64,000 nt of DNA, taken from assembly GCA_965216875.1 (NCBI GenBank), contig OZ244207.1:7520001-7584000 (forward strand), written 5' to 3'. Each line of letters starts with the position of its first letter. Position 1 is the first letter of the stretch. The translations under genes and the position numbers were made by a program. The notes beneath the pieces were generated by a model that saw only the letters and a program-made list of their open reading frames with translations, did not search any database and was not told the origin of the DNA. Below are positions 11,943-60,996 of the stretch, piece by piece. Origin of the DNA: Rubripirellula sp. (lineage in GTDB: Bacteria > Planctomycetota > Planctomycetia > Pirellulales > Pirellulaceae).

Positions 11943-14900
11943 ATGTTGGATCGAATGACACATTATTTCGCTGCATTGGTATTCTTGATCGCTTCGGCGG
12001 TGATCTACGAGAACGTTCTGACGCCGTGGATGGAACCGGCCAAGTTGTCGTCCGTTCCGCCCAAAAAGCCCTTTGATGGAAGCGTCGGTGGCGACAAGCT
12101 GGCCGATTTGTTTCCCGACCCCGAGGCTTGGCAACGCGGCGCCTGTAAACAGCTGCAAACCTCTGATGGCATGTTGTTGTTTGCCAACGGCAAGCAGATC
12201 TCGGCCAACCAATGGAAACTCTGGCCTGTCACCATCGTGGTCGGCCGCGGCATGTCTTCCGAATCGAAGCGAGATCCCTTGATCATCGAGGCACCCGAAG
12301 GGGCCGAGATCATCTTCACGACGTCGCTGGATGTCATGAGTAGCGCGGGGGCGGGCGCGAAAACTCCGATCAAACGTGGACGCATGATTGGCCGCGTGAA
12401 CATTCGCCGGCCGAGCAGTGACAAACCGACTCAAGCGATCGAAATCACAACGGCCAACGTGGGGATTGATCGTCGCAAGATCTGGACGACCGAACGCATC
12501 GAAATGAAGTTCGGCGACGCCCGACTTTCCGGACGCGACCTGACGGTGCACTATTCCGGTCCCGATGCATCGGGCGGAGGCAATCCCGCGTCGATTCTTG
12601 ATCGCATGGACCTGATCTATTTGGACCAGTTCATCATGCCATTGAAAGAGGGTGGCCTGCTGAAGTCCAAGAAGCGGCCGGGTGATCGCTCGACCCCGAT
12701 CCCCGGGCCCTCAGCGGTGATCTCTTTGAATTGTGGTGGCCGAGTTGAATATGACTTTGCGATCGATCAGTTGTCGCTTCGAGATTCGGTCTCACTCGTG
12801 CATCAGGTCGACGGGATGCCTGCCGACCAATTCCATTGCGATTCCTTGTTGCTCAACCTGTTGGATCCAACCAACGACAAACTGCCACGCGAGACACCGC
12901 TTGATTGGATCAAACGCATCGTGGCGACCGGCCGACCAGCGCGTGCCGTGTTGCCGACATTCGATTCGGAGATGCAAGCCGATTCGATCGATTTTGATGC
13001 CGAAGCCGGCTTGGTTCGCGCGATCGGAAAATCGGGGATTTGGGTTCGCCGCGGCGGCATCGAAGCGAGCCTCGCCCAACTGGCCTATCAATTCGATCCG
13101 AACAACTACGAAGCAATCGGGCTGATCAACGTCCAGGGCGCCGGGATCATCAAGGTGAATGACCCCAAGATCCCGCTGCTGCGCGCTCATTGGCGTGATC
13201 GCTTTCGGCTCGAGCCAACCAAAGCGTCAGTTGCGGACGAATTTGATGCCGACGTCGTTCTGCAAATCGATGGCGACATTCAAGCCACCCTTTCCGATGG
13301 CGGTCAGTTCCACGCACAGACCGTGGATGGTCTGTTGAAACCGAAATACGAGTTCGATCCAAAGAAACAAAAGAAGGTGATGTCACTTGTGCCAAAAACC
13401 TTCCAGGCACAAGGCAATGTGCGTGTCGATACCAGCGCGATCGCCGCAGAAACCGACCGGCTTGATCTCGAGTTTGTACAGCCTATCGATCCACAACCTC
13501 GATCGGTCAGTGGCGATGACAAAGCAGCCGAGGACAAAAAGAAATCGAACCCACTTCGCCAATGGGTGATTCAGCCAGAGAAAGGGGCCGACAATAAGGT
13601 CGACCCGGTCGCCCGGCCACGACCGGTGATTCGAGGTGATTGGATCAGCGCCCAGTTGCGACTCGATGAAGATGCCGTCAACGCAAAGGACATGTCGGTC
13701 ACCGGATCGGTTTCGCTGACACACGTTTTGAAGACAGGCGACAAGATGTTGCCCGCGCGATTGACGGGCGAATCGTTGCGGTTAATCGATGGTGGTGGCG
13801 AGGATCTTTTGCAGCTTGGCAGTGGCGTCGAGTCGCCTGCTCGGTTTGAGTTGGGTGATGGATTCTTTGTGGGGCCGATGATCCAAATTCGACCCACTGA
13901 CAATCTTGTTTGGATCAACGCGGCGGGCGAATTTCAAATGCCGACGGCTGCCCTTCCGACCAGTTTAACGGGCGACAAAGAATCGGAATTCGTTTGGGTC
14001 CGCGCGCCTCACTGTCGCTGGCAGGGCGAGATGTTTTTTGATGGACGCTCTGCAGTGCTGACCGATGGCGTTCGCATCGACGCATCACTTCGACGCGAAG
14101 CCGATCTTTGGGACGTCGAAATGCATGGTGATCGCCTACAGGTCGACTTGCAAAGTGGCGTTCAAGTCAACGACGTCGACACGATGAAGAATGCGGCGAT
14201 CGAACGCATCTCACTGATGCAATCTGAAGAGCGGCCGGTTCTCGTTCAAGCCTTTCGACGTGCCGGCGACAATGTGCTCGAAGCAAAGCATGTGATGAAA
14301 GCCGACAAACTTGTACTCGTTCCGGGAAGCAAGGGTGGCGGCGGTGTGATTTCGGGTGGCCGACTGATCGGCGAAGGTCCGGGTTGGTACCGCGGATGGA
14401 TGAAACCGAAATCGAAAGGCGCTTTTGGCAAACTGATCGGTGGTGGAGACAAAGAGGGGCAAGTCGCTAAGAAGCTCAATGGCGTGCACCTGATTTTCCA
14501 CAACACCATGCAAGGCGACTTGGTCACCAAGAGTCTCGAGTTTGTGCGTGGCGTGCGCGTCGGACTGCGCGGCCTTGATGATTGGGACCAAAGCTTTGAC
14601 GCCGCCACCATGGATTCCATCTCGGCTGGCGACGCCACGATCGATTGCGACAAACTTCGCTTCGCGATCTCGCCCGGTCAGCGTTCGCCATCGACCGGCG
14701 ATCAAGCGTGGGAAATGGAAGCGAACAGCGGCGTCGTTTTTCGAACACGGAGCGAACGCGGTCTGCTCGAGGGAACGGCAAGTCGAGCGGCCTATGCTTC
14801 GGCAAAGGACCTTTTCACGATTGAGGGGGCTCCCAACCGCGCGGCAACCTTTAAACACACTCTGGCCGATGGCAAACCGGGGCCGGAGGGTGCGGTCCGC

Positions 14901-22747: not shown

Positions 22748-22792
22748 CGACCGAAATGCCGTCTGCCCTTCGAGATGCGAAAAGTGGGTAAG

Positions 22793-22818
22793 GCCCGACG
22801 CTAGCGCGTACGGCTCAC
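22793..22818 (-). repeat. REP family A copy
   Basis: GCCCGACGCTAGCGCGTACGGCTCAC between convergent genes. Confidence 0.8.
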
Positions 22819-26656: not shown

Positions 26657-27547
26657 ATGAGCAAACCTTCTCTAATCGTTACTTTTTTACACTCACCCCT
26701 GCGAAACTGGGGGGGATGGGCTTCTCTGGCGGTGGTGATGGCAATTTGGGGCGGTCAGGCACCTGCTCAGGAAGCTGCGAACAACGATGCAGCTGAGCTC
26801 GCGTATCCGCTGTCGGTGGCCGTCAGTGGCGACGATTTGTACGTGGTCGACCTCGATTTGCCCGGCGTGTGGAAGGCGGGAGCTGAGCCTCGGGCTCTGC
26901 TGGTCCGTGGTTCGAACCTGCTTCGCAAGCCAATGAATCGTCCGCGGGCGATCGCGATCCATCCCGATGGCGGTCTGCTGGTCGGCGACTCGGCAACGCG
27001 CGAGGTCTATGCGATTGGGGCCGATGGTGGTGAGCCCAAGCCACTGACCGATGGCTATATCGGAAACGTGATGGCAATCGCCGTTTCGCCCGATGGCAAA
27101 ACGGTCTACGTCGGCGACGCAGAGAAACGGGCTCTCTTTCGATTTCCGATCGAAGGGGGCAAATGCGATTTGGTGGCCCGAGTGAATGCTCGTGGATTGG
27201 CGTTTGACTCTGACGGCAAGCTTTGGGCGATCACTCCTGACGACGCCGCGGTCCAACGCGTTGACGTCGAATCGAAGGAAGTGGAAAAGGTGATCACTGG
27301 TCGACCCTTTCAATACCCCAACGGACTCGCTTGGGCAGGCGATCATGGTTACGTCACCGACGGCTACGGCAAGTGCATCTGGAAGTTCACAGCCGACGGC
27401 AAGACTGAAAAGTGGCACGAAGGCGATCCGCTGGTTGGGCCGGTCGGCATTGCAGTGACTGAGGGCTCGGTCTTTGTCGCCGATCCAAAGAAGAAACAAC
27501 TCTTCGAAATCAATCGCGAAAGCAAAGAGGTCAAAGAGCGACTGTGA
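26657..27547 (+). CDS. Secreted NHL/SMP-30-like beta-propeller protein
   Basis: Signal peptide (APA-QE); repeats PLSVAV..LYVVD, PRAIAI..LLVGD, IAVSPDG..VYVGD, PNGLAW..GYVTD, PVGIAV..VFVAD. Confidence 0.8.
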   Translation: MSKPSLIVTFLHSPLRNWGGWASLAVVMAIWGGQAPAQEAANNDAAELAYPLSVAVSGDDLYVVDLDLPGVWKAGAEPRALLVRGSNLLRKPMNRPRAIAIHPDGGLLVGDSATREVYAIGADGGEPKPLTDGYIGNVMAIAVSPDGKTVYVGDAEKRALFRFPIEGGKCDLVARVNARGLAFDSDGKLWAITPDDAAVQRVDVESKEVEKVITGRPFQYPNGLAWAGDHGYVTDGYGKCIWKFTADGKTEKWHEGDPLVGPVGIAVTEGSVFVADPKKKQLFEINRESKEVKERL

Positions 27548-27620: not shown

Positions 27621-28238
27621 ATGACGCTAAGTGTTGCCAACATCGTTGATGCCACCGAGGCCGAAGGACCAGGCGTACGGTTTGCGATTTGGTTCCAGGG
27701 GTGTCCGTTCCGGTGCCCCGGTTGCTGCAATCCAGAGATGCTGACGTTTCGCGGCGGCACCGAGATGTCGGTCGCCGACGTGGCCCAGCGTATTGGCAAC
27801 GCGCTCGAGAACGAAGCGATTGAAGGGATCACGCTCCTCGGTGGCGAGCCCTTCTCGCATGCACGTGGCGCAAGTCAGCTTGCCGAGATCGCGCAAGTCA
27901 TGGGGCTGTCGGTGATGGTTTTTACCGGCCACGAGTTTTCACAGTTGCAAGCCAACCCAGACGATGACGTTCAGTCGCTGATGGAACACACCGATTTGCT
28001 GGTCGATGGTTTGTACGATCGAGACCAACCCGACACGACACGTCGCTGGATCGGATCAATGAACCAAGAGATCCACTTTTTATCGGGGCGATACAGCCGC
28101 GAAGACGCTTTCTGGAACAAACCTGATACGCTTGAGATTCGGCTACGCGATGGCGAGCTTGCGGTCAATGGTTTTCCAGCGAAGTCGGCGGTCGGTGTTT
28201 GGAAACGCCCACGCAAATCGTCGAAAACTCGGTCGTAG
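27621..28238 (+). CDS. NrdG/PflA-like radical SAM (4Fe-4S single cluster) protein
   Basis: EGPGVRFAIWFQGCPFRCPGCCNP (CxxxCxxC), GITLLGGEPF, DLLVDG.Y, WIGS.NQ. Confidence 0.9.
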   Translation: MTLSVANIVDATEAEGPGVRFAIWFQGCPFRCPGCCNPEMLTFRGGTEMSVADVAQRIGNALENEAIEGITLLGGEPFSHARGASQLAEIAQVMGLSVMVFTGHEFSQLQANPDDDVQSLMEHTDLLVDGLYDRDQPDTTRRWIGSMNQEIHFLSGRYSREDAFWNKPDTLEIRLRDGELAVNGFPAKSAVGVWKRPRKSSKTRS

Positions 28239-28333
28239 CTGCCTTGGCCAGAGGAGTGGAATGGTGTTGGCAAGCCACGCCCAACTTGCTGGCGAGCGTC
28301 GCTCCTGCGTGACCGACAACACAACAATCTAAT

Positions 28334-29371
28334 ATGCGTTCCGTCTCACGTTTCGAATCGAACCTGCTGCGAATCCTGCACTGCATCATGGGGCAGGCTG
28401 AGGTGACGCATGTGTTGCCGATCGTGTCCAAGGGGCAAAACCGTCCCAAGTGTTTGAGCCGCGACTGCGTCGAACTGGTCAAGCAGGCTCTTGGTGCGGG
28501 CACGATCACATTCCTCGCCGCCGAAGATGCCTGGAAGCATGAGCGTTACTTGCGCAACGACCAGATTTCCGAAGGCCGGCTTTGGCAACGCACCGATCCG
28601 TCTGAGCTTGGCCTTGAGTTTTCGGCTGCGTCGCTCGACCTGTTGATGTGGCTGACCGAACAACATGCGCCACAGAGCATGCCGCCTTGGGAATATGAGG
28701 GGCAACTCACGCTTGGCGACGAATTCTTGGTTGCTTTGACCGCGCTTGCGTTTTCCGATACCAAGATGCTGGTCCATTGTTTTCGTGTGGGGCGATTCGC
28801 TCAGGCAACGCTGGCGCCTTTGCTGGTGCCTGGCGGGTACGCCTATTCTCGAGTGACGCCTGAGCCTGACTATTCGTCGTGGGTTTCCGCGCCGGGTTGT
28901 TACGTCATCGAATCGATCCAGAAGCGTTTGGCCGCGCGTTGGACCCGGCTCGAAACCACAAAGCAGCGTTTACTATTGCCGGCAGAAATGCGTGCCGTCG
29001 GACAGGTCCAGGAAAGCGTCCTGACCGCCTGGATGGACGCCTGTGAAAAGGCAAATCGAAGAGATTTGTGCCGTTTTCTTTTCGAAGTTGCGGCGAAAGT
29101 CTACCGCGAGCAGACCACGTCTCGCGACTTCTTTGGCAATCTCGATACCAAAGACATGCGGCTGGCAGAGCGAACCGAAGTCTACCAAGTGGGGTCTGCA
29201 TTGATGCGAGCTGTCGACCGGCTGCGTCGCTGGCAGACTGCCAGTCAATCGGTCGGCTATTTCGACGAAGGCTATGCGGAGTCTCAGCTTCTCAAGTCGC
29301 TGTGGGAATCGGGGGCGATGGATGAAGCTGCGGCTCACGCCAGCCGGGTCAGCAAGGAACTCGATTTTTAG
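28334..29371 (+). CDS. Hypothetical helical protein, probable FtsH-ternary-system component (fvmX6-like)
   Basis: Motifs GRLWQR...LEFSAAS, RRDLCRFL, SVGYFDEGYAESQ; assignment from recalled family and neighbourhood. Confidence 0.55.
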   Translation: MRSVSRFESNLLRILHCIMGQAEVTHVLPIVSKGQNRPKCLSRDCVELVKQALGAGTITFLAAEDAWKHERYLRNDQISEGRLWQRTDPSELGLEFSAASLDLLMWLTEQHAPQSMPPWEYEGQLTLGDEFLVALTALAFSDTKMLVHCFRVGRFAQATLAPLLVPGGYAYSRVTPEPDYSSWVSAPGCYVIESIQKRLAARWTRLETTKQRLLLPAEMRAVGQVQESVLTAWMDACEKANRRDLCRFLFEVAAKVYREQTTSRDFFGNLDTKDMRLAERTEVYQVGSALMRAVDRLRRWQTASQSVGYFDEGYAESQLLKSLWESGAMDEAAAHASRVSKELDF

Positions 29372-29491
29372 ACTCTTCGAATCGCCGGATCGACAGTATG
29401 CCTCCGGTTGTTGTCGAGCTTTTGACGCTTTCACAGCTATCTCCTCTCTGTTGAACATGCGAAAATAGGGCAAGCATTGGAGGACATTTGC

Positions 29492-30061
29492 ATGAGCCGA
29501 GCATATCGAATCAGCGTCAGTGAAACGGTTCGCCGAGTCATTCACGCCGAGGACCACGTCAGCACTCAACTAGAAATCTTGGATGTGTTGCCGTGCGACC
29601 AAATGACCGACCTGTTGGCAGCCGAACTCGAAGGCCTTGGTTTCGAGCGAGACGGTGACGAGATGGTTCGCAAAGATGGCCCGACGACGGTTACCGTCGA
29701 CTTGCCATCGGCAACCGTCACGGTCACCAACGAAGCTGCCAAAGAAGTGAAGGTGTCGGGCAAGAAAACGGGCGTGACCTACGACGACTACGGTCCAAGT
29801 ACAAAAGAGGCCAAGGCAAAGGTCAAAGAGTCGTTGACGAAAGAACTCGAAAGCAACGTCGACGAAAAAGAAGCTGCCCTTCAAAAGAAGATCACCGACG
29901 AACTCGAATCGACACTTTCGGGTTTGCGAAAAGAACTCGATCAAGCAGTCAATCGAGTGACGGCAACCGCGCTGAAACAGAAAGCGGCACAGATTGGCCA
30001 GATCAAAGAGCTAACCGAAGATCCCGAATCGGGTTCACTCACGATTGTCGTCGAAGTGTAA
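29492..30061 (+). CDS. Hypothetical protein, probable FtsH-ternary-system component (fvmX5-like)
   Basis: GGAGG RBS; MSRAYRISVSE...LEILDVLP; coiled coil; C-terminal ALKQKAAQIGQIKELTED..SGSLTIVVEV. Confidence 0.65.
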   Translation: MSRAYRISVSETVRRVIHAEDHVSTQLEILDVLPCDQMTDLLAAELEGLGFERDGDEMVRKDGPTTVTVDLPSATVTVTNEAAKEVKVSGKKTGVTYDDYGPSTKEAKAKVKESLTKELESNVDEKEAALQKKITDELESTLSGLRKELDQAVNRVTATALKQKAAQIGQIKELTEDPESGSLTIVVEV

Positions 30062-30083
30062 TTCGACCAGTGCCAGACGTCCC

Positions 30084-30180
30084 GTGAGCCGTACGCGCTA
30101 GCGTCGGGCTTTGCACCAGCGACTGGTCTTGCATTGCAGTTCGCATCACGGAGAGCCCGACGCTAGCGCGTTCGGCTCAC
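30084..30180. repeat. Inverted pair of REP family A (REPIN-like doublet)
   Basis: GTGAGCCGTACGCGCTAGCGTCGGGC 30084-30109 and inverted copy 30155-30180. Confidence 0.85.
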
Positions 30181-30320
30181 TGCATGCAGACCGCTGCCGT
30201 TTCGTCGTACCGAGCGTTTGCCGGAATCGTCAGGCGATTTGCCCAAAGGCGGCAATGCAAACGTGGAGGCCGCCGCGCAGCTGCCTCCCATACACCTTCT
30301 CACTCGCATAAAATTGCATC

Positions 30321-32477
30321 ATGTCTGTCATCATTCCCGAGTCGGAATTGCCGAAAGAGCTAACGCCTGAGCAGTCGGTCGAAGCGGCCTATGCAGAAAC
30401 GCTTAGCGACGTGGCGTCTGATTTGATCCGCGGTCTTCCTGCGCTTGTCGAATGTGACAAGGACTTGGCGCCGTACGTGTTCATGAATGTTCGCGCGCGG
30501 TTACGTCAAGAAGACTTGCGATGCCTCTATTTGGACGGTCGCCCGCCCGCCGACCAACCACCCGATCCTATGCAGGGCGGGTTGTTGGGCACGATGATTG
30601 GGCAGTTGCGTGATGCCGTTCGAGGCGCGGTGGAACGTCGCGTCGTTGTTTTGCCACACCTGGATCTGCTGACAACAAGCCAGGGTGGTTTGACCGCCGA
30701 AGCACGCGAAGTCATTCCGCTGCTTTACGAAAACCCCGAGTTGGTTTGGTTGGGATTCAAAGACCCTTCCTTTCCGCTTCCCGAAGTGATCGAGAATCTG
30801 TTCCCGCATCGGTACAGTTTGCTGGGGATCCCACGTCCGCGGCTCAAACAGTTGGTCACGCAGAAAGAAGCTCGCAAGTTTGGCAAAGAGTTCAACCCGT
30901 GGAGTCTGTACAAATACGTTTCAGGGATGAACGCAGTTCGGCTGCGCAAATTGTTGTCGACCCTCGAGGGGGAAGACTACCCGAGTGATCCGCGCCGCGC
31001 GTATGCACAGATTCGCCAAGCGACCAGTGGCGGAACACTGGAAGTACCTCGCGTCGACCTGCAAAACGACATTGGTGGCTACTCGAAAGTCAAGAAACGA
31101 CTGTCGTCCGAGATCCTCGAAGTGTTGTCGACGAAAGAGAGTCGAACCGACCCCGAAGAAATCAAGCGACTTGAAGAGTTGATTCCTCGTGGAATGGTTT
31201 TCTGGGGGCCTCCCGGGACGGGCAAGACGATGTTTGCCAAGGCGATCGCGACCGCAATCGGGGCGGCGATCACCGTTGTTTCGGGGCCGGAGCTTAAGAG
31301 TCGTTGGGTCGGCGAAAGTGAAGAACGATTGCGCCAGATCTTTCATCGTGCGCGACAATCCGCTCCTTCGATCATCGTCTTTGACGAACTCGATTCGTTC
31401 GCGGCCGCACGTGGCACTTACACCGGCAGTGGCGTCGAGCACTCGATGGTCAACCAGTTGCTTACCGAGATGGATGGATTCCATAGTGAGGAATTGGTCT
31501 TTGTGGTTGGCACGACGAACTTTGTCGACATCCTCGACCCCGCACTCTTGCGCCCTGGACGCTTTGAGTTCCACCTGCACATTCCCCATCCCGATCGGGA
31601 TGATCGTCGCGCGATTCTGAAAATCTACGACGAGAAGATGAACTTGAACCTCACCGAAGAGGCTCTCGAGTTCGCTGTCCGACGCACGGGAGAGTTTGTC
31701 GAAGGTGCAGCGGCGGGAACGCGATTCTCGGGCGACCATATCAACGCACTCTGTCGCGCGGTCGCACGGAATCGTTTGCGTGACAATGTCGATGGTCCAA
31801 CCGAGGCGAAAGACATCGATCGAGCACTGACCGAATGGGTGGATCGGCCGAAGATGACGCCTGTCGAAGAACGTGTTGTTGCCACACACGAGGCGGGACA
31901 CGCGGTCGTCGCCTTGTTCTGTCCGCACGCACCGCCGATCGATCGAATCTCGATTCGCGCCGACACTGCTGGGGCGCTCGGGTTTGTGCGTCACCAGGAT
32001 CCCGCTCACAAGTATGTTGTCACCCAAGGCGAACTCTTGGATCAGATTTGCATCTTGATGGGTGGCCGCGAAGCCGAACAGCAACTTTTGGATGACCTTT
32101 CAATCGGATCGTCTGGTGATTTGTCGCGCGCGACAGATATCGCACGAGCGCTCGTGGAAGACTATGGCGGTGGCGGCAGTCAGGTTGGCATCGGGCACTA
32201 CCCAACACAACGAATGCCAGGAACGCCACAACAAGAGCTCTCGGCAAGTCAGCTTGAAGCGATCGACCAACAGGTCCGAGCGATTCTTGAAGAGCAGCGG
32301 CAGCGTGCCGTGGGCATCCTTGCCGAACACCACGACCTGATTGTCGTCTTGCGTGACCTGCTGCTCGAAAAGAAGGTCATTGACGCGAAAAGCCTTGGCG
32401 AATTGACGCAAGATCAAGGTGTCACCTTGCCAGTGAAGTCGCATTCCACTGCCGGCCAGTCCAGCACATCTGAATAA
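30321..32477 (+). CDS. Soluble FtsH-like AAA+ ATPase / M41 zinc protease
   Basis: Walker A GPPGTGKT, pore loop RWVGESE, Walker B IVFDELDS, SRH LDPALLRPGRF, HEAGH, MGGREAE, GSSGDL..AT; no TM segments. Confidence 0.9.
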   Translation: MSVIIPESELPKELTPEQSVEAAYAETLSDVASDLIRGLPALVECDKDLAPYVFMNVRARLRQEDLRCLYLDGRPPADQPPDPMQGGLLGTMIGQLRDAVRGAVERRVVVLPHLDLLTTSQGGLTAEAREVIPLLYENPELVWLGFKDPSFPLPEVIENLFPHRYSLLGIPRPRLKQLVTQKEARKFGKEFNPWSLYKYVSGMNAVRLRKLLSTLEGEDYPSDPRRAYAQIRQATSGGTLEVPRVDLQNDIGGYSKVKKRLSSEILEVLSTKESRTDPEEIKRLEELIPRGMVFWGPPGTGKTMFAKAIATAIGAAITVVSGPELKSRWVGESEERLRQIFHRARQSAPSIIVFDELDSFAAARGTYTGSGVEHSMVNQLLTEMDGFHSEELVFVVGTTNFVDILDPALLRPGRFEFHLHIPHPDRDDRRAILKIYDEKMNLNLTEEALEFAVRRTGEFVEGAAAGTRFSGDHINALCRAVARNRLRDNVDGPTEAKDIDRALTEWVDRPKMTPVEERVVATHEAGHAVVALFCPHAPPIDRISIRADTAGALGFVRHQDPAHKYVVTQGELLDQICILMGGREAEQQLLDDLSIGSSGDLSRATDIARALVEDYGGGGSQVGIGHYPTQRMPGTPQQELSASQLEAIDQQVRAILEEQRQRAVGILAEHHDLIVVLRDLLLEKKVIDAKSLGELTQDQGVTLPVKSHSTAGQSSTSE

Positions 32478-32551
32478 CCATCGTCGCCTACAATGGTCTC
32501 TGGTCACGGACCTTATCGACGGACCTACCTCATCGTTGAAATGACAAACTC

Positions 32552-32821
32552 ATGGCTGAAATGACAATCCGGCTTCGCGTGAACCCCGAGACCGGAAAAA
32601 AAGACATCGTCGTCGATCTTCGAAGTGAGGAAGATTCGCTTCCGCATGAACATGAACAGCAACACAAGCAGCTTGTCGACAAGTTGATCGAAGGGGGCCT
32701 CGTGAGTGCTGCCGAAGTTGGCCAAGTGATTGTCCAACGCGAAGAAGAGACACCGGTTAGCAATTCGCCAGTCGACAACCCACAACAAGATCAACGCCAA
32801 GCTGCGCAAGAAGGAAACTAA
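32552..32821 (+). CDS. Small hypothetical protein, probable FtsH-ternary-system component (fvmX3-like)
   Basis: MAEMTIRLRVNPETGKKDIVVDLRSEEDSLPHEHEQQH; between FtsH-like and large helical genes. Confidence 0.65.
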   Translation: MAEMTIRLRVNPETGKKDIVVDLRSEEDSLPHEHEQQHKQLVDKLIEGGLVSAAEVGQVIVQREEETPVSNSPVDNPQQDQRQAAQEGN

Positions 32822-32898
32822 GCCGCATTCATGCCAAGGCGATCAAAGCTCGCATTGCCTTTTCCAACGCATGGGATGTCTTTTCGGCGTCGACCACG

Positions 32899-35800
32899 AT
32901 GATCCTGCAATTCCCGAATCTCGATTCGCTTAAGATCGCCATCACTTCGGAACTGGTTAGCCAGTCGATTCAGGCTGCGCCGGTGCGCGTTGCCTTTTTG
33001 GGTGACTTGGTTTTGGTCGAACCAAGCAAGCCGATCAAACGTGGCGAGATGTCTGAGTTGGTGCGGCTGGGGGTCGAAAAGAAACGAAGCGTCAAAGCCG
33101 AGTATCGCGACCTTATCAACTGGTACGAAGCGTTGCCGCTGACGCCCGTCGAGGAAGACGCGATCGGCGAGAAGAGCGAAGTGCTGTTCGAGTTATCGGG
33201 CGACGACACGCTGGCAAACGTTGTTGGGGAAATGCTTCGCCTGGGAAATGACCGTCAAAGTTTTCGCTACGTCGGCGAGAACGGATCGACACGCGCGCTG
33301 CTTCGAGTCACGGGGCCGCCCTACTACACGATGCTACGTGCACTTGATGACGAGGCCCACGCACGCACTGATGGTGATTTGGTTGCCTACGTCCAGCAAG
33401 GGCCTCGTGTTTGGATCGAAGCAGGTTGGCGGCACCCGTTTGGTGACCGCATTGAACCGGCGCCAGGACAATGGTTGTTGGTCAGTCAATCCGCGCCTTG
33501 GCGTTTCATTGACGAGGGACACTTTCGTGATGTCTACAAGCTGCTGAAGCTTGAATTGCCCAATGGCGTTTCGACGTTTCAAGAGACCGAGCCAGAGCAG
33601 AAGATTCAAGTCAATTTGCAACTCGCGGCCGGTGGTTCCAGCGACGCGCCCGAACTCTGGGTGCTCACCAAAGATGCAATGCGTCAAACGGAGTCGCTGA
33701 TTCGTCGCAGTGATGATCGCTTGATTTCACGCCTTGCCTTTGCCGTTACCCACGAAGCGGACGTCAACGATGGTCAGCCCGTTGTGATCATTCGGGCGAG
33801 ACCATCAAAACACGCGCCGCCAATCTTGGTGTTGGATGGGGACGCGATGCGCCCCTACCTGAGGATCCCTAACCTGTTCGTGCCGGTGACGAGCCGAATT
33901 CATCCACCGCTGCGGCGCGATGCCGTGACAAGTCTGCTCGCCTCGGATGGCGAGTTGATCACTTGGTTGATGCCAGCGGGCGAGGACTCGTTCGTTCCAC
34001 AATCGATTTCGGATGGCGCTTTTCGTCCGCTTGAGGATTGGGTCGACTACGTTCTTGATCACGACCAACAAGAACTCAAGGCATGGATGGCCTCGCATCA
34101 ATTTGACTTCGAATCGTTTGTTTGTGGCGAGCGGGGCGCTGAAGAGAAACCGAAACGAACGGACAAACGGGACGACAAAACAAAAGACACGGCCAAGGCA
34201 TCTGGCTCGAGCGGTGGAAAAACGTCGAGCAAGCGGTCCGGCGGTGGGAAACGCACAACCAAATCACAGTCCAACTCGGCCGATCTTGAGTTTCTGAAAA
34301 CAACGATCAAGAAACCAAAGCAAGACGCCGTTCAGATCCGATTGCGCGAGCTTGAGAGCGCGTTCATCGAATCGGACGAACCGATCGACTCGGCGCATCG
34401 TGAGGGGATGTGGGAAGAGATGGCGATCGCCAACGCGACGCTACAGCGACGACATGATTCGACCGTCTGCTGGGTCAACTCCGTTTGGAATCAGGCCGAG
34501 CCGGACTCGCAGCGAGTTGAGAAGTGGATGGCATGCGAGCAGCATGGCGCGAGCGTTAGTGAACTTGATGAAACGTCGTTGTCCAGCGTTCTCTCATCGC
34601 GGGATGCTGCCACGTCCAATCCGGCCCTCGTTGCCGCTTTCCTGACATGGGCGGGATCGCAGGAGTCGACTCCGGCGATTGCCAGGAACCGATTGAACGA
34701 ACTGACGCAATACTTGCAATCCAACGAGTCGGGTTTGCCGATCCGTGCCGCGTGGATGTCGTGGGTCGCACTCTACAGGATGACCGGCAACGACGAACTC
34801 TTGCTGGCTCGGGCCCGCGATCGTGTTCTGCAACGACTGTTCGACAAAGGAATGACGCCCGAGTTCGACATGGCGGGCTTCATGCGAACCGGTGGCGGTG
34901 AAGCTAATGATCGTTTTCGCACAGTACGTGAACAACTTCTGAATTTGAAAACGCAGGTTGCCAAGTGGGTTCAAGAACCTGATGGCAAGGCAGAGGCACG
35001 TACACGCAGCTATTGTGACTTGGTTTTTGCATTTGCGCTGGCTCGGCTCGGAGAGACCAAGCAGTGCAACATCATCTTGGACGAAGTCGCCGAGCAGTTT
35101 GCGCGCAACGGTGACGAATTGCACATGTGGGCCTGTGAAGCCTATTCGCACCGAGTTCGACAATCTCTGGCAGGGGAATACAAGACGGATCCGTTGCCCG
35201 AGGAATTGGTTGGCCGGCTTGAATCGATGCAGATGTTTGATCGTTATAAGTTGGAAAAGCTTCGCAACATGTCGTTGGTGCTTGAGCCGGCGTTTCGAGT
35301 TGACGCATATTCCAATACCACCGCCAACCAGTTGGGCGATTTCAACCGCGATTTGTTGAGTCTACAGAACACGTTAGGTGCCGATGAAATCGGTGATGTC
35401 GTTCGAGAGTTGTTGGCGAAGTACCCGGAAGATGCCCATCGTCAACAGTTACTGCCCGTTGCGCTGCAGGTTGCACCTCAAGTCGACGAAAAACTGGCTG
35501 CCGTCTTGCTCGATCATTCCACTGAGATGATCAAGAAGACCGATGACGCGTATCAGTTAGCAAGCCTGTTGCAAAAGTCGCTGTTTGTCGCTGCCCATTA
35601 CGGACGCATCAGTCTGGTTCACCAAATCATGAACTCGTTGGTCAAGGCGTTGCCGAAGATTGTCGAGTCGTACATGACGATGGCCGATAGCAACGAAAAC
35701 GTCGCCAAGGTTCGCGGAATCGAGACCCTGTTCACACAGTCTTTTCGCGGTTTGCGAAAGCTTGGGATGAGGGGTGAGATCGGCGATCTGTATGCTCAGG

Positions 35801-36315
35801 TTGCAATGCTCTCGGCCGAGAAAGCCAAGCTGGGAGCATCGGCTCGCAAGAGTCAAAAAGGACGCGCCGGCGACGAGGCCCGGCCGATGCGTTTGATGCT
35901 CTCTGCGGCCGCCGGTTGGTTCTACTTTGGGCGAACCGAAGATGCACGCGAGATTGTCGACCAAGTTCGCGATCGCCTGTTCCGCGGGGACCTGGATGAA
36001 CGCGGGCAACTGAGGCTGTCGATCGCGTACCTGAACGCGATCTCGCAAGCCGACGTTGACGAGTCGTTGCGACGCGTCGAAGAGCTTTTTGTGATGAGCA
36101 AAACGGGCAAACGTCAGCTCAACAAAATTGGAGACAACGCGCAAACCAATTCGCACTTTTCGATCTCGCAGCTTGAGCTTGTTGAGCAATCCGTTTTGGC
36201 GCTGGTGAGTGAAGATTTCGTGTTGAGTGATCAATCGCGACGTTGGTTGGATGAAGACGAATTCCTGGTCAGGTCACGTATTCACCGCGATGTGCGTGAA
36301 GCGACGGGAACGTAA
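32899..36315 (+). CDS. Large hypothetical protein (N-terminal alpha/beta domain, K/S/G-rich linker, long helical region), probable fvmX7-like component
   Basis: 1138 aa uninterrupted ORF; motifs GPPYYT.LRA, PNLFVP...HPPLRRD, FRPLEDWVDY, RRWLDEDEFLVR.RIHRD. Confidence 0.6.
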   Translation: MILQFPNLDSLKIAITSELVSQSIQAAPVRVAFLGDLVLVEPSKPIKRGEMSELVRLGVEKKRSVKAEYRDLINWYEALPLTPVEEDAIGEKSEVLFELSGDDTLANVVGEMLRLGNDRQSFRYVGENGSTRALLRVTGPPYYTMLRALDDEAHARTDGDLVAYVQQGPRVWIEAGWRHPFGDRIEPAPGQWLLVSQSAPWRFIDEGHFRDVYKLLKLELPNGVSTFQETEPEQKIQVNLQLAAGGSSDAPELWVLTKDAMRQTESLIRRSDDRLISRLAFAVTHEADVNDGQPVVIIRARPSKHAPPILVLDGDAMRPYLRIPNLFVPVTSRIHPPLRRDAVTSLLASDGELITWLMPAGEDSFVPQSISDGAFRPLEDWVDYVLDHDQQELKAWMASHQFDFESFVCGERGAEEKPKRTDKRDDKTKDTAKASGSSGGKTSSKRSGGGKRTTKSQSNSADLEFLKTTIKKPKQDAVQIRLRELESAFIESDEPIDSAHREGMWEEMAIANATLQRRHDSTVCWVNSVWNQAEPDSQRVEKWMACEQHGASVSELDETSLSSVLSSRDAATSNPALVAAFLTWAGSQESTPAIARNRLNELTQYLQSNESGLPIRAAWMSWVALYRMTGNDELLLARARDRVLQRLFDKGMTPEFDMAGFMRTGGGEANDRFRTVREQLLNLKTQVAKWVQEPDGKAEARTRSYCDLVFAFALARLGETKQCNIILDEVAEQFARNGDELHMWACEAYSHRVRQSLAGEYKTDPLPEELVGRLESMQMFDRYKLEKLRNMSLVLEPAFRVDAYSNTTANQLGDFNRDLLSLQNTLGADEIGDVVRELLAKYPEDAHRQQLLPVALQVAPQVDEKLAAVLLDHSTEMIKKTDDAYQLASLLQKSLFVAAHYGRISLVHQIMNSLVKALPKIVESYMTMADSNENVAKVRGIETLFTQSFRGLRKLGMRGEIGDLYAQVAMLSAEKAKLGASARKSQKGRAGDEARPMRLMLSAAAGWFYFGRTEDAREIVDQVRDRLFRGDLDERGQLRLSIAYLNAISQADVDESLRRVEELFVMSKTGKRQLNKIGDNAQTNSHFSISQLELVEQSVLALVSEDFVLSDQSRRWLDEDEFLVRSRIHRDVREATGT

Positions 36316-36333
36316 AGAGAGATTTGAAAACAA

Positions 36334-37350
36334 ATGAGCACGATGGATATCAACGCCGAAGAAGCCACCCTTGAACAGCTTCGTGAAGAAGCCGAGGAGA
36401 TTCGCGCGCGATTGAACCGCTTCCGAACTTCACTCGGTCGCTTCTTTGTCGACAAACAGCACTTGATCGATTTGATGGTCGTCGCTGCCGTTGCGCAAGA
36501 ACCACTACTGATTGTGGGGCCGCCCGGAACGGCGAAAAGTGACCTTGTCTTGAAGTTCAAAGATGCCCTGGGTATTCGACAGGAAGACTACTTTGAGTAC
36601 ATGTTGACGCGGTTTACCGAGCCATCGGAGATCATTGGCCCGATCGATATCAACGAATTGCGTGACGGACGCTACATCCGCCGCGAGCAAGGGAAGCTGC
36701 CAACTGCGAAGCTTGCGTTCTTGGATGAAATCTTCAAGTCGAACTCGGCTATCTTGAATATCTTGTTGACCATCATCAACGAAAAGAAGTTCTACCAAGA
36801 CGGAGTGCCGCAGCCTGTTGCCTTGAGAGTGCTGTTTGCCGCGACCAATGAAATCCCCGAGCACGACGAACTTGGCGCGCTCAAGGATCGATTTGTGCTC
36901 AAGGCTGAAAGCTTGCCGGTCCAAAACGATCACTTCACCGATTTGATCGATGCGGGTTTGAAAGCCGAGGTGTACCGCAATTTGAATCAGCGTCCTTGGG
37001 TGGAAGATCACGCGTCGCTCGAAGACATCGTCAAAGCCCACCGCTACATGATGTTGTTGTTCGGGCAACGCGATTCTGGTGGCGAAGCGACGGACCGTTC
37101 GAAGTTCTTTCCCGATGACGTCTTCAACGAGTTCCGGCGGTTGATCAAGACGCTCGTTCGAGAAGACAAGATCTTCATTAGTGACCGAAAACTCGTGAAG
37201 CTTTACAAGTTGTTTCGCGTTCGTTCGTGGATCATGAGTGGCGGTTCCGTCACACGTGACGACTTGCGGCTATTGATGTATTTGGGTGAAACGCCTGAAG
37301 AGATGGCGCTGCTTCGAGAGAAAATCCCAAACCTGCTCGGCGAATCATGA
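36334..37350 (+). CDS. MoxR/RavA-type AAA+ ATPase
   Basis: EPLLIVGPPGTAKS, YMLTRFTEPSEIIGP, AFLDEIFKSNSAILN.LLTIINE, AATNEIP, ALKDRF, ISDRK. Confidence 0.93.
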   Translation: MSTMDINAEEATLEQLREEAEEIRARLNRFRTSLGRFFVDKQHLIDLMVVAAVAQEPLLIVGPPGTAKSDLVLKFKDALGIRQEDYFEYMLTRFTEPSEIIGPIDINELRDGRYIRREQGKLPTAKLAFLDEIFKSNSAILNILLTIINEKKFYQDGVPQPVALRVLFAATNEIPEHDELGALKDRFVLKAESLPVQNDHFTDLIDAGLKAEVYRNLNQRPWVEDHASLEDIVKAHRYMMLLFGQRDSGGEATDRSKFFPDDVFNEFRRLIKTLVREDKIFISDRKLVKLYKLFRVRSWIMSGGSVTRDDLRLLMYLGETPEEMALLREKIPNLLGES

Positions 37351-37433
37351 GTCAGTGTGGTCGGCACGACGCTAGCGCCGCGGACTGGCGTACCAGCAAT
37401 CACTCTCCCAAGGGAGAGTGTTAACGTGCGCAA

Positions 37434-38906
37434 TTGCAACGATTCTTAAAATCGAACTCTCTTCAGGCCTTAACATTGTCCTCGTTTGATCTTCGCGATC
37501 CGGATGACGCCAACCGCTACGTTTTGCAAGGTCTGTTACTTGCACGTAGTGGCCCGGTCACCCCTGCGCGAGCTGAGCAATCACTGCGTTGGGCGATGGA
37601 GATTGTGTCGGATGGGTCACCGCTTCCACCGCTCGGGTTTGTTGCCGACGTGGGATTTGTGGCCTTGGGAACGCAGCGTAGCGCCGACATTGGTAAGGCG
37701 GACCCCGTCGAAGGACTCGACCACACCATCACTCGGCGATACGAGGACTATGTGCTGGGGAAGCTCTATGCGGACATGGGCTTCGAAAGAGCTGGCGATG
37801 CGTTGCTTCGCTATTCAGGGCGCGATCGTGACCGTGGGGTCGCGTACATCGTTAACCAACAACGGACCCGCTGTGGCTTCGGTGGCGCGATCCTCAGTCC
37901 CGCCGTGATCAAGGGCTTGCTTAAGAGAGACGGTGAAGCCGTTTGCCAACTCGCTTGGGAATCGGTGGAAACGGATCAGCTTTCGCCTCAGGTGATCGAG
38001 CAGTTCAAGCAATTGACGCTGGCGGTCCGCAACACCGGTGAATTGCTTGGCCCCGAAGATATTTTTGAACTCGAGTCGGGGACGGCGCTCGCGCAATTCG
38101 GTCAGCGTCTGGCGCTGCGACAGATCCTTCAAACGGCAACCACACTCGGCCAGGATATTCCCAAGCAGAAGCCTCGCTCGCAACCGCGCCAATACTCTGT
38201 GGCAACCAATATCATGGAGGAAGACCACTATCCGATTGGTGGTTTTACTTCGATCTCGAACAAGGGAACCGTTGAGAGTATGGTCCGCAGCGAGCTGGCA
38301 TACATCGACCCGGAAATGCGTCCTGACCTGTTTGACATCAAGTTTGCTCGCAACGAATTGTTGTACTATTCGCGCGACGAAAATCAGTTTCTGCGGCGTC
38401 GGTTGTCTTATGTCATTGTGTTGCAACCCAATCTGTCGGCGGCTCGATTTAAAGACGATTCGTTGCCGTGTCAAAGGATCATCTTGCTGTTGGCCTCGAT
38501 CTATGTCGCCGTGACGCAGTTGCTCGAGTGGCAAAGCACCGACGCGATTCAATTCGAGTTCCTCATCCCTCACAAGGATGGAGATGTCGAATTGGCCGAC
38601 GAAATGGTGCTCCTGCAAACGCTTTTCGGAGACCTGATCGCTTCGGAAACGGTCGAAGTCAGGGCCGTTGATCCCGATTCCATCGCCGAGCGGTGCATGT
38701 CTCGAGCGCGAACCAGCATGTGTCACACGTTGTCGATTGGGTGTGAAGATTCAGGCGACACTGACGAACTGTCGATTCCCGCCCGCATGGTGCTGGGGCA
38801 AGCTCAGCCGACGCTTGTCCTTGCTGGTGACTCGTTTGCCAGTGAGGAGGTTGGCGTCGCGGGCTGGAAAGAGCAGTTGGACCGTCTGTTGCGTTTTTGG
38901 GTTTAG
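37434..38906 (+). CDS. vWA-like partner of MoxR ATPase with degenerate MIDAS
   Basis: ViaA-like pre-vWA motif GGFTSISNKG...RSELA...DLFDIKFARNELLYYSRDE followed by strand YVIVLQPNLS (no DxSxS); start uncertain (37434 or 37476). Confidence 0.6.
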   Translation: MQRFLKSNSLQALTLSSFDLRDPDDANRYVLQGLLLARSGPVTPARAEQSLRWAMEIVSDGSPLPPLGFVADVGFVALGTQRSADIGKADPVEGLDHTITRRYEDYVLGKLYADMGFERAGDALLRYSGRDRDRGVAYIVNQQRTRCGFGGAILSPAVIKGLLKRDGEAVCQLAWESVETDQLSPQVIEQFKQLTLAVRNTGELLGPEDIFELESGTALAQFGQRLALRQILQTATTLGQDIPKQKPRSQPRQYSVATNIMEEDHYPIGGFTSISNKGTVESMVRSELAYIDPEMRPDLFDIKFARNELLYYSRDENQFLRRRLSYVIVLQPNLSAARFKDDSLPCQRIILLLASIYVAVTQLLEWQSTDAIQFEFLIPHKDGDVELADEMVLLQTLFGDLIASETVEVRAVDPDSIAERCMSRARTSMCHTLSIGCEDSGDTDELSIPARMVLGQAQPTLVLAGDSFASEEVGVAGWKEQLDRLLRFWV

Positions 38907-38955
38907 CGGTCCCGGATTGCAGTGCCGCTGAGCAGTTTCCTGCCGAGGCGGCCAC

Positions 38956-39729
38956 ATGTTGGACATCGAAGAGCACTTGCTCGATGCGGTTCTATCGCAT
39001 CGCGATGAGGATTGTCCTCGTTTGATCTATGCCGATTGGCTGGAGGAGACGGGAGATGTGCGCGCCGAGTTCATTCGCTTGCAGTGTGAACTGGCCAGTT
39101 CGCCGGACCGTTCAACGCTCAAGCAAAAGAACCGGATCACGCACCTGGATCGCAGTTTTCGTAGACGTTGGCTAAGCTCCTCCGATCGCCCTGAGTATCA
39201 CCTGCGGTTCGAGCGCGGGTTTGCCGAATACGCGCGTTTGTCAGCGGCACACTTTGCAAAGTCGGGGCGCGAGGTGTTGCGGAATCGAATGCTTCGAGAT
39301 CTGACGATCACTCCAACCGAGCAACTGGCCCATGGTGCACCCGCGCTCGTCACTAACTTGAATTGGACGCTCGGGCGTGCCGAACTCGACTGCCTTCGAA
39401 TCTCACGGTGCGGTATGAGTCAGGACGACTTTTTGCGTCTGATGCGAATCCAGAAGCTGTCGCGTTTGCGGACGCTCGACTTGGCGTGGAACCAATGCGT
39501 GACCAACGAGACGCTTGGCTCTCTCGAAAATGCGACATTCGCAGGCTCCCTGCGCATGCTCGATCTAACGGGCTGCATGATGGATGGCGACGCGTTTGAC
39601 GTGATAGCGAGCAAGGAGTTTTTCAAGGGTCTCGACTTGATTGTTTTGCATCGACCAAACGCGAGACGCTATGCGAAGCATCGAAAACGACTCGATGAAC
39701 GCCTCGGACAACGCATTCTGTACATGTAG
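38956..39729 (+). CDS. TIGR02996 domain protein with LRR-like C-terminus
   Basis: LLDAVLSHRDEDCPRLIYADWLEETGDVRAEFIRLQC; FERGF; LRTLDLAWN, LRMLDLTGC. Confidence 0.88.
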   Translation: MLDIEEHLLDAVLSHRDEDCPRLIYADWLEETGDVRAEFIRLQCELASSPDRSTLKQKNRITHLDRSFRRRWLSSSDRPEYHLRFERGFAEYARLSAAHFAKSGREVLRNRMLRDLTITPTEQLAHGAPALVTNLNWTLGRAELDCLRISRCGMSQDDFLRLMRIQKLSRLRTLDLAWNQCVTNETLGSLENATFAGSLRMLDLTGCMMDGDAFDVIASKEFFKGLDLIVLHRPNARRYAKHRKRLDERLGQRILYM

Positions 39730-39821
39730 CAGACTCGATGGTTGCGGTGTCGTGTCAGACTGAGTGACAATATTGGTCGCCAGCCACTTCGCCACTGCAT
39801 CCTCGATCTGCTGATTGTCCT

Positions 39822-40982
39822 GTGTCGTCCAATGTCGAAAAACCCAGTACGACGCGTCGGTTCGAGATGGCCAACGATCAGTCGTATAAGTTTTGGGAAA
39901 TCTCACGCGAAGACGCTGTGGTGCATGTCCGTTTTGGACGGATCGGCAACCAAGGACAGTCGAAAGAGATCACTCATCCGAACGTCGAAGAAGCAAAACG
40001 TGACTACGAAAGCCGAATCGACGAAAAGATTCGACGAGGCTACAAGGAAAAGTTCCAGGCGGCCAAAAAGGTCATCACGAATGAGGACATTTGGCGGTCC
40101 CTTGAAGATCACGAACCCTTCTTGAAGTCGATCTTGGAGGACCCCGACGAGCCAGGACGCTACGCGATTTACGCTGATTGGTTAATGGATCGAAATGATC
40201 CGCGCGGGACATTCACCCAGTTGCAGTTGGAACAACAGGATCCACAGTTGCCGCTTTACCGACGCGGCAAGATCGACGCTGAGATTCAACGACTTCGTGC
40301 GCTTCATTCACGACAATGGCTCGGTAGTTTGGCGAATTGGTTGATGGATCGAGGGTTGATGTCGATTCCTTACAAATTCTTTAACGGTCAACTTTCGAGT
40401 CTCTTCTGCGAAACGCTGGACGTCGAATTCGCCGCTCAGCTTCGTGATTCGCCCTATTGTCGGATGCTGCGAGAATTGACCGTCATCGAGGATGGGATTC
40501 AAGAAGGCGTTACGGCCAAGCATGGTTTGGAAACGTTGCTTGGTGCTGATTTTTCGAACCTGCGGGATCTTCGGGTTGGAACCGAGGATCACGTGCCATT
40601 CGGTCGACGTGGTCAGATACATGGGGCTTTGAAAGTCGTCGATCTGATTGCCACGATGCCGAGGTTGCAGAGTTTGATTCTCTGTGCGGATGTTCGTTGG
40701 TCCGATTTGTTCGCAATGGAGTTCCAATTTCTCACCGCGCTGTATGTCGACCTGAGATCGGATCAGTTGCCGATGTTGGCCGAGTCGGGCATCGTCAAGC
40801 AACTCCATACCTTGGGACTCTTCGGCTCGATTGATGACGAAGATGCGGAGTTTTTGGCATCGATCGAAGGGTACGAAGGTCTTGTGGAATGTTTAGTGCC
40901 CGAGAGCCGCGGGTTGACGCAAAAGGGAGTGCGACGCCTTGAGGTTGGCGGTGTTAGCGTGCACCGAGTCCCCGGCACGTGA
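39822..40982 (+). CDS. WGR + TIGR02996 + LRR-like protein
   Basis: RRFE...SYKFWEI...VRFGRIGNQGQ...EKIRRGY (WGR); ILEDPDEPGRYAIYADWLMDRNDPRG.F.QLQ; LRR-like strands. Confidence 0.85.
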   Translation: MSSNVEKPSTTRRFEMANDQSYKFWEISREDAVVHVRFGRIGNQGQSKEITHPNVEEAKRDYESRIDEKIRRGYKEKFQAAKKVITNEDIWRSLEDHEPFLKSILEDPDEPGRYAIYADWLMDRNDPRGTFTQLQLEQQDPQLPLYRRGKIDAEIQRLRALHSRQWLGSLANWLMDRGLMSIPYKFFNGQLSSLFCETLDVEFAAQLRDSPYCRMLRELTVIEDGIQEGVTAKHGLETLLGADFSNLRDLRVGTEDHVPFGRRGQIHGALKVVDLIATMPRLQSLILCADVRWSDLFAMEFQFLTALYVDLRSDQLPMLAESGIVKQLHTLGLFGSIDDEDAEFLASIEGYEGLVECLVPESRGLTQKGVRRLEVGGVSVHRVPGT

Positions 40983-41114
40983 GCCGAACGCGCTAGCGTC
41001 GGGCCCAACAGCGTCATCGCCGTTTGTAGTCCCGCCTTCAGGCGGAAAGCGTGAAGATTCCGGCTAAAGCTCGGTACTACGGACCCCGGCCCGACGCTAG
41101 CGCGTACGGCTCAC
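40979..41114. repeat. Nested REP cluster A>-C-<A
   Basis: A 40979-41004, C doublet 41026-41080, inverted A 41089-41114. Confidence 0.85.
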
Positions 41115-50260: not shown

Positions 50261-50393
50261 GTGAGCCGAACGCGCTAGCGTCGGGCCTCGTACTCTTTTG
50301 CGAATAGTGCGAACGGCTGTCATGCGGAGCATGACCTACGAAGAGGACGCGGAGCGTCCGGGAGTGCGTTACCACGCGGAGCGTGGTAACGAG
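50261..50393. repeat. Mosaic REP cluster (families A, B, D)
   Basis: A 50261-50286, B 50319-50339, D 50340-50393; 50308-50393 nearly identical to 7618-7703. Confidence 0.85.
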
Positions 50394-58450: not shown

Positions 58451-58465
58451 GCGACACACTGTCGC
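58451..58465. promoter_or_regulatory. Palindrome resembling RegA/PrrA/RegR box upstream of ccoN
   Basis: GCGAC-acact-GTCGC about 140 nt before ccoN start. Confidence 0.4.
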
Positions 58466-60987: not shown

Positions 60988-60996
60988 GAAGGTGCA

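Follow-up and report, generated by a model that had tools for sequence, protein, structure and literature searches.

The window analysed here is a 64,000-nucleotide stretch of the genome of Rubripirellula sp. (Planctomycetota, Pirellulaceae; assembly GCA_965216875.1, contig OZ244207.1, positions 7,520,001 to 7,584,000 of the forward strand). It carries a cluster of ten open reading frames (ORFs) on the + strand, 27621..40982, separated by intergenic gaps of 18-259 bp (Table 1). Domains were called with Pfam and NCBIfam profiles at their curated cut-offs. In the first five genes the Pfam families over cut-off were Fer4_12/Radical_SAM (SAM, S-adenosylmethionine), fvmX6, fvmX5, AAA with Peptidase_M41, and fvmX3-analog; in the remaining genes they were fvmX7, bpMoxR, ivWA-helical_N with ivWA and, in the last gene, WGR. 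The initial annotation, made from the sequence and its translations, had described ten co-oriented genes, which were recovered at the same coordinates and on the same strand; the proteins that it had left as unknowns match the fvmX6, fvmX5, fvmX3-analog and fvmX7 families (hereafter X6, X5, X3a and X7). Its description of the last two genes as a TIGR02996/leucine-rich repeat (LRR) pair stands only in part: the TIGR02996 domain is present in both, but the LRR match is weak in the first (LRR_8, E 0.045) and absent from the second, which is refined to a WGR + TIGR02996 gene. Its likening of the cluster to the FtsH-vWA-MoxR (fvm) ternary systems proved correct: judged by sequence profiles, the eight genes from radical SAM to ivWA, here called the core, are a complete copy of the "simpler" FtsH-MoxR-vWA ternary system, a known, computer-predicted kind.

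Table 1. Features of the cluster (positions within the window)
Feature	Positions	Strand	Evidence
NrdG-like radical SAM protein, 205 aa	27621..28238	+	PF13353, E 2e-33; PF04055
fvmX6, 345 aa	28334..29371	+	PF20004, E 6e-67
fvmX5, 189 aa (ATG 29492)	29492..30061	+	PF20003, E 7e-59
REP-like inverted repeat, X5-ATPase gap	30088..30182		blastn against genome
Soluble AAA+ protease, 718 aa	30321..32477	+	Pfam AAA + M41
fvmX3-analog (X3a), 89 aa	32552..32821	+	PF20002, E 3e-31
fvmX7, 1138 aa	32899..36315	+	PF20005, E 2e-84
MoxR AAA+ ATPase, 338 aa	36334..37350	+	PF20030, E 5e-60; P-loop GPPGTAKS
Helical N-domain + divergent vWA (ivWA), up to 490 aa	37434..38906	+	PF19996, PF19997 over cut-off
TIGR02996 protein, weak LRR-like tail, 257 aa	38956..39729	+	TIGR02996, 65.8 bits (cut-off 29), domain 38968-39096
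WGR + TIGR02996 protein, 371-386 aa	39822..40982	+	PF05406, E 9e-13; TIGR02996, 39.5 bits, domain 40107-40235

The "simpler" FtsH ternary system was defined as vWA-MoxR subsystem 3 by Kaur, Burroughs, Iyer and Aravind (eLife 2020, PMC7159879). According to the main text of that paper, it comprises a divergent vWA protein fused to a helical domain, a MoxR protein and an ATPase with dead and live AAA+ domains, together with a radical SAM enzyme, a peptide gene and the effector NEFF1, which is defined only in a figure and the source data; the anti-invader role of the system is a prediction made there. The Pfam families of the system are PF19996, PF19997 and PF20002-PF20005. A second, complex subtype carries ubiquitin-like and EAD1 domains and, as described in section 21 of the same paper, caspase-like effectors. 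The main text of PMC7159879 contains no match for M41, CDC48 or TIGR02996 and names no TIGR02996/LRR partners, and the available text of two follow-up papers (PMC8195603, PMC10907252) mentions neither FtsH nor TIGR02996. Our literature search found no paper naming TIGR02996, fvmX5 or fvmX7 and no experimental test of the simple system, and met the term "FtsH ternary" in PMC7159879 alone. NEFF1 could equal one of the parts described below, so the TIGR02996 link may already be covered by that work. The elements that we put forward as new are this link and its phage counterpart, the M41 domain as a subtype marker, and the core as an obligate, vertically kept unit.

The 718-residue protein consists of an N-terminal domain that lacks Walker motifs, an active AAA+ domain (GPPGTGKT at residues 296-303, pore loop WVG, IIVFDE) and an M41 zinc peptidase domain (HEAGH at 523-527, D600). 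HExGH is found in 28 of 28 homologs, among which Walker A, Walker B and the pore loop are also conserved, and the invariant D600 matches the third zinc ligand of FtsH in an alignment by eye with a true FtsH. In the N-terminal part, HHalign places VVVLPHLD on Walker B with a probability of 0.1%. The maximal 19-residue hydropathy is 1.61, compared with 2.89 and 3.07 for the two true FtsH proteins of the genome; with no transmembrane segment and with AAA and M41 both over cut-off, the protein is the membrane-free AAA+/M41 protease that had been proposed. It scores 289 bits with the FtsH model TIGR01241, whose cut-off is 600, and the best solved-structure sequence matches of its AAA+ domain are VAT and p97. 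In a tree of 56 AAA sequences, with clade labels assigned from domain count and motifs, the ATPases of the simple and complex subtypes form one clade (support 100/97), while true FtsH joins PAN (98/97). A joint clade with FtsH was rejected by the approximately unbiased test (p 0.039, a modest margin in a test picked after the tree had been seen); a clade with Cdc48 D2, which the tree itself does not show, was not (p 0.24), and the TIGR01243 match is below cut-off. The term "soluble FtsH" thus holds for solubility and the M41 site and fails for the grouping of the ATPase with true FtsH; as far as the sequences tell, the name fits the architecture and not the descent of the motor. Regulated proteolysis as the output of the system appears sound, given the intact M41 site. 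In the N-terminal tier (window 30321-30700; residues 45-47 and 113-115), C45, K47, H113 and D115 are 90-100% conserved, partly even in the complex subtype, and may form a ligand or metal site.

Conservation of the core was followed in ATPase homolog loci (33 of the 80 listed, those with at least 59% identity; the others comprise two complex-subtype loci and 45 with other ATPases). Planctomycetes repeatedly show the order rSAM-X6-X5-ATPase-X3a-X7-MoxR-ivWA, often broken, and myxobacteria show it in pieces, so that the synteny sought across Planctomycetota and Myxococcota exists, with an operon that is often split. Within short flanks, some of which end at contig ends, the pairs kept were X3a-X7 in 26/29 loci, X5-ATPase in 26/30, X5-X6 in 25/30, rSAM-X6 in 19/30 and MoxR-ivWA in 12/30. 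Across 35 core genomes (34 chosen by the ATPase and one by X7), X5 is present in 35, and X7, ivWA and radical SAM in 34 each, mostly as single copies; MoxR was present in all five split-operon genomes tested, and X6 and X7 were over cut-off in the same five of 61 relatives. The core set is nearly all-or-none at the genome level. The closed 7.8 Mb genome G030 (G030:C1; L008, L309-L315) keeps the eight core genes intact but solitary, at eight sites between 1.54 and 6.21 Mb, and offers a natural setting in which to study regulation in the absence of an operon.

Several variants of the layout were seen. Divergent systems in G068 (L386, G068:C1:6107000-6126999) and G081 (L387) have a rearranged gene order, radical SAM, X3-like, X5, with an ATPase bearing HEIGH on the opposite strand; X7 was not found in G068. 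A WD40 propeller gene stands between X7 and MoxR at L021:12700-13800 and L035:15762-17009, an arrangement reminiscent of the complex subtype, whose vWA is fused to a propeller. Tandem copies of X7 occur in L029, L030, L031 and L039 (22-36% identical to the window protein), X5 being doubled as well in L030. At L029:6680-7717 and L030:5735-6760 the gene immediately upstream of radical SAM encodes an RNA 3'-terminal phosphate cyclase, and in L386 a gene that resembles it by eye is found 9 kb away from X5. In L018 the X6, ATPase, X7 and ivWA genes are each frame-split, probably through assembly errors.

The window genome holds 15 TIGR02996 copies with varied tails; in alignments longer than 70 residues they share 21-39% identity. 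Apart from the two at the locus, the tails are LRR (six), DUF1963, an L7/L12-like domain and a weak TPR, with four giving no match. The 257-residue protein resembles the LRR paralogs of the genome over more than 200 residues, and the WGR + TIGR02996 gene has a 55% identical counterpart in the same position, after ivWA, in locus L014. Fusions of the module to DUF1963 (L396) and to a ribosomal L7/L12 C-terminal-like domain (L400, G000:C1:1583147-1583908, E 1e-6) were recorded; the latter would fit a decoy role.

TIGR02996 genes adjoin a core gene in just three of the 35 core genomes, which first suggested that they were bystanders; the genome-wide test then pointed otherwise. Those cellular copies that were found in the fetched loci all lie directly beside a core gene or one gene away (three genomes). 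Among 61 relatives, all five core-bearing genomes have TIGR02996 (15, 2, 6, 17 and 44 matches, the last in G030), whereas among 56 core-less genomes the family is absent from 54, passes the cut-off once in one and gives a sub-threshold match in another (Fisher p 1e-4 with genera collapsed and 6e-4 within the family, kin not being independent). In a single family, TIGR02996 is over cut-off in 5/5 core-bearing genomes but not in 31 of the 32 core-less ones, some of which measure 9-14 Mb. The family was also present in 25 of 30 further core genomes, including four of four myxobacteria, and hence in 30/35, with copy numbers from 1 to at least 76. Counting the TIGR02996 genes as part of the system, as had been done from the outset, is justified at the genome level by this co-occurrence, though they are seldom inside the operon, and the two at the locus are probably not bystanders. 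Since the family is expanding fast, is nearly confined to core genomes and also occurs in phages, they are likely to be swappable target-finding parts.

The phage copies came from a pattern scan of IMG/VR, which gave 157 matches, 130 of them confirmed; the best 80 of the 130 correspond to 78 loci, which hold 91 ORFs with TIGR02996. Their tails are shorter than the cellular ones (median 186 versus 243 residues), and a crude LRR pattern, applied to the viral set only, matched at least twice in 1/90. Terminase, portal or major head (capsid) genes flank eight of 20 sampled loci (55 ORFs scanned). The 3-kb flanks of the 78 loci contain no core genes; elsewhere in the viral data X5 was found at one locus and X7 at none, and no close ATPase was among the 64 loci listed. 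The single X5, 47% identical, lies on the 164-kb viral contig IMGVR_UViG_3300027819_000007 (L232) together with two short TIGR02996-like ORFs. It adjoins a sigma-70-like gene (positions of interest 197-2228, 8362-8625, 10001-10555 and 12143-12493), and further short ORFs there have similar-looking N-termini that the profile does not match. Among L407-L484, a Cys-rich insert often follows the domain of the phage TIGR02996 proteins, with an RRGF strand kept; their genes often stand in the DNA-packaging module, and several contigs have two or more.

The reading that we favour, at a probability of roughly 45%, is a cytoplasmic, ATP-driven unfold-and-cut machine for which TIGR02996 proteins serve as interchangeable receptors that pick its targets, in a contest with phages that includes viral mimicry. 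Receptor-directed proteolysis with mimicry is the simplest account of a constant, co-inherited protease core, an expanded family with variable tails that hardly occurs outside core genomes, and viral copies of the module. The 718-residue protein would form a ring whose active AAA+ tier threads substrate into the M41 chamber; X7 and X3a would be a scaffold gating the protease, and X5 and X6 would travel with it. The constant 45-residue TIGR02996 module would dock on the core, and the variable tail (LRR, WGR, DUF1963, L7/L12-like) would select the trigger or substrate, in the way that SCF ligases rely on F-box/LRR proteins. MoxR and its vWA partner would assemble or release the complex, the NrdG-like enzyme would modify one protein of the set, with X3a as the best guess, and phage TIGR02996 proteins would jam or redirect the machine. 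In this scheme we infer the physical contacts, the order of events, the radical SAM substrate and the biological role. A bolder form, that planctomycetes and myxobacteria possess a ubiquitin-free analogue of SCF/p97, with a Cdc48-like ring protease, up to dozens of TIGR02996-LRR receptors and phage mimics that block or steer it, is rather doubtful.

The inheritance of the core bears on whether such a machine serves defence at all. Distances in the ATPase tree follow those of GyrA (Spearman 0.85, 26 genomes), with seven well-supported splits shared and four GyrA splits in conflict, and core inheritance is therefore taken to be largely vertical with many losses. The GC content of the cluster is 55.6%, compared with 56.3% for the genome. 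PADLOC matched seven of 140 neighbouring ORFs, all partially (some of these ORFs are perhaps spurious, and the count has no control set), and on the core itself it returned nothing specific beyond generic ATPase and radical-SAM matches. The core thus behaves as one obligate machine and not as a mobile defence cassette. A slow-evolving core that tracks GyrA, a genome-like GC content and few, partial PADLOC matches around it all weigh against the defence part of our reading. They would suit the same machine with the same TIGR02996 receptors acting in regulated proteolysis for the cell's own stress response or development, a degradation pathway that phages hijack; a core that is single-copy and stays intact when fully scattered, among ordinary neighbours, agrees with this. 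Nevertheless, presence in 5/61 relatives is patchy, copy numbers running from one to at least 76 and divergent tails look like an arms race, and the sister subtype bears the ubiquitin-like, EAD1 and caspase-like parts described in section 21 of PMC7159879; an own-cell role is, in our judgement, unlikely.

The link between core and TIGR02996 also has exceptions, which count against receptors docking on the core as a general rule. Five of the 30 further core genomes have no TIGR02996, and a looser profile run on three of them gave at best one marginal match. The divergent-core genomes G068 (closed) and G081 have none either, and G019 and G084 have one copy each without X5, X7 or ivWA. Because of these core-bearing and divergent-core genomes without the family, the link applies to the main clade of the system but may not extend to deep variants. 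Among 49 unselected genomes of the phylum, one has a weak single TIGR02996 match, and the core was looked for in five of the 49, two of which have the divergent cores just described. Finally, hmmsearch --max and HHalign found no TIGR02996-like copy inside any of the eight core families. Such exceptions in both directions, along with the rarity of TIGR02996 genes near the core, speak for the model of Kaur et al.: there a thresholded conflict system yields a peptide modified by the radical SAM enzyme plus NEFF1 (sections 21 and 24 of PMC7159879), a peptide for which X3a, small and conserved, is available, and TIGR02996 would be a fellow traveller of planctomycetes and myxobacteria with large genomes, or a substrate class. 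We consider this quite unlikely, as the family-level split goes beyond what genome size or habit alone would give, the link reaches myxobacteria, and the invariant M41 site is left unaccounted for. TIGR02996 proteins as target receptors of the protease remain our preferred account.

The accessory core proteins could be characterized to different degrees. The radical SAM protein has CxxxCxxC at residues 28-35, invariant in 16 rows, and NrdG is its best NCBIfam match, below cut-off. X3a carries the motif D28-x4-E33-H34-E35-x2-H38, in which E33, H34, E35 and H38 are kept in 98-100% and D28 in 91% of 149 diverse rows; this cluster is likely to be a metal site, and the protein is a candidate for the standalone peptide of the simpler system. 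The MoxR protein matches RavA below cut-off; in ivWA the DxSxS motif is absent from 23 of 23 rows, so that the metal ion-dependent adhesion site motif is not intact. MoxR/vWA pairs of the NorQD type load metal, and a maturation pathway can be imagined in which MoxR/vWA loads metal into the X3a EHExxH, the radical SAM enzyme activates X3a and the protease recycles subunits. The near-invariant D/E/H cluster and the presence of an NrdG-like activase in a cluster that has no glycyl-radical enzyme gene speak for it, but an 89-residue protein gives no catalytic scaffold, the vWA is without its metal motif, and the TIGR02996 link and phage copies are left unexplained; we regard such a pathway as improbable.

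X7 has small alpha/beta N-terminal domains (model of residues 1-410, predicted local distance difference test score (pLDDT) 85), a low-complexity linker and a large C-terminal region that weakly resembles helical-repeat proteins, with unnamed and TPR clusters as Atlas leads; it is likely to be a scaffold or adaptor. MecA proteins are adaptors of the ClpC ATPase, and MecA C-terminal domains fill the top four VIA rows for the X7 N-terminus (Z 5.9-6.1, root-mean-square deviation (rmsd) 3.0-3.6, 75-81 residues aligned), within the chance range. MecA homology was set aside, as the likeness is a fold lead at Z about 6 that has no sequence support, a further point against the reading favoured above; the 126 genomes searched yielded no MecA sequences for profile comparison. 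The X5 model (pLDDT 87) has two 22-residue beta strands, a 67-residue helix and a C-terminal hairpin. It gave no confident fold match (best E 0.07 with Foldseek against PDB and 0.02 against viral models; best Atlas value 0.81), its best VIA row being KA1-like (Z 7.2, rmsd 3.0, 84 aligned); with no outstanding match in any of the four sets, a cage or tube protein was discarded as a candidate. fvmX2 matches occur in 14 of 50 X5 members (best E 5e-4), and X5 is likely the counterpart of fvmX2; five of 17 X3a members match fvmX3, and 19/32 and 5/32 X7 members match bpX2 and bpX3. Although mostly below cut-off, these cross-family matches suggest that a common accessory set spans the simple and complex subtypes.

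Homology of X5, X3a and the ATPase with DUF1257, DUF2997 and Ycf46 was likewise rejected: HHalign probabilities were at most 2.6%, within the control range and from shallow alignments, which a DUF1257 search of 81 actinobacterial genomes and viral contigs did nothing to deepen. Ycf46 AAA domains score 44-66 bits against 120-128 for FtsH and form a separate clade in the tree. Planctomycete Ycf46-DUF1257-DUF2997 operons were seen in L090-L102, often followed by a gene resembling pentapeptide repeats, with a DUF1257 variant that has a hydrophobic N-terminus in L098 and L100-L102.

The remaining scanned genes of the window are ordinary, and the closest named ATPase homologs, 85-88% identical, are labelled Rubripirellula, Rhodopirellula or Pirellulaceae. 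An eleventh co-oriented gene, encoding an NHL propeller (26657-27547), precedes the radical SAM gene with a gap of 73 bp and adjoins it in nine of 30 loci, some of which have the other cluster genes elsewhere; it likely reflects local synteny outside the system. REP-like inverted repeats built around GCGCTAGCG give about 444 blastn pieces genome-wide and occur in the window, besides the one tabulated, at 40979-41114, 7555-7580, 22790-22818, 50261-50286 and 55994-56018; this is a genome-wide element and not specific to the system. Promoter and terminator scans gave signals at or below chance. A cbb3-type oxidase operon lies at 58273-63947, with subunit I and the FixO cytochrome in a single 904-residue ORF.

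As described in the main text of PMC7159879, the simple FtsH ternary system had no hypervariable part, which the conflict argument made there requires. With the TIGR02996 link a candidate is at hand, as is a first functional approach to a family that can reach dozens of copies in one genome; the phage copies suggest a contested interface. If the SCF/p97-analogue reading were true, a large orphan family would gain a function and a new class of phage counter-defence proteins would be recognized. What had been a vague "conflict-like operon" can now be reduced to specific experiments.

Compared with the simpler system as set out in the main text of PMC7159879, the cluster shares a MoxR protein with a GxxxTAKS P-loop, a divergent vWA that has a helical N-domain and may lack the metal-binding aspartates, a third ATPase whose second AAA+ domain is active (Walker A, Walker B, pore loop and RPGRF conserved) and an adjacent radical SAM gene. 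Neither has a vWA beta-propeller or, in the cluster and its scanned flanks, a Ubl, JAB, E1 or E2 Pfam match; seen here only are the intact M41 site and TIGR02996 tracking the core. With the complex (Ubl tri-ligase) subtype the system shares the ATPase clade, X7, and the likenesses of X5 to fvmX2 and of X3a to fvmX3. The complex ATPases, however, stop after the AAA+ domain, with M41 absent in 3/3, so the fused protease marks the simple subtype, and the single genome tested, of an actinobacterium, holds no TIGR02996. A proteasome-docking tail was considered for these ATPases and not seen in the same three, as judged by eye against the motif.

Like FtsH and m-AAA proteases, the 718-residue protein places AAA+ before M41, with HExGH and the third-ligand Asp in register; unlike them it has no membrane anchor, has an extra N-terminal domain and carries WVG within SRWVGES where they have MFVGVG. 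With Cdc48, p97 and VAT it shares a pore loop of the KWVGESE type and the best structural sequence matches, but its first tier lacks Walker motifs, leaving one active tier, and a protease is fused. Effector-associated domains (EADs) are described in section 30 of PMC7159879 as small modules on many proteins whose presence is correlated with the core. By description, TIGR02996 is likewise small, non-enzymatic, borne by many proteins and correlated with the core, whereas no copy is fused to a core component; with none inside the core proteins, TIGR02996 departs from the homotypic pattern that Kaur et al. give for EADs. The simple subtype has no ubiquitin pathway, in contrast to SCF, yet TIGR02996 proteins resemble by description the F-box/LRR receptors, which are the substrate receptors of SCF ligases: both combine a constant N-terminal module with a variable repeat tail and exist as many paralogs across the genome.

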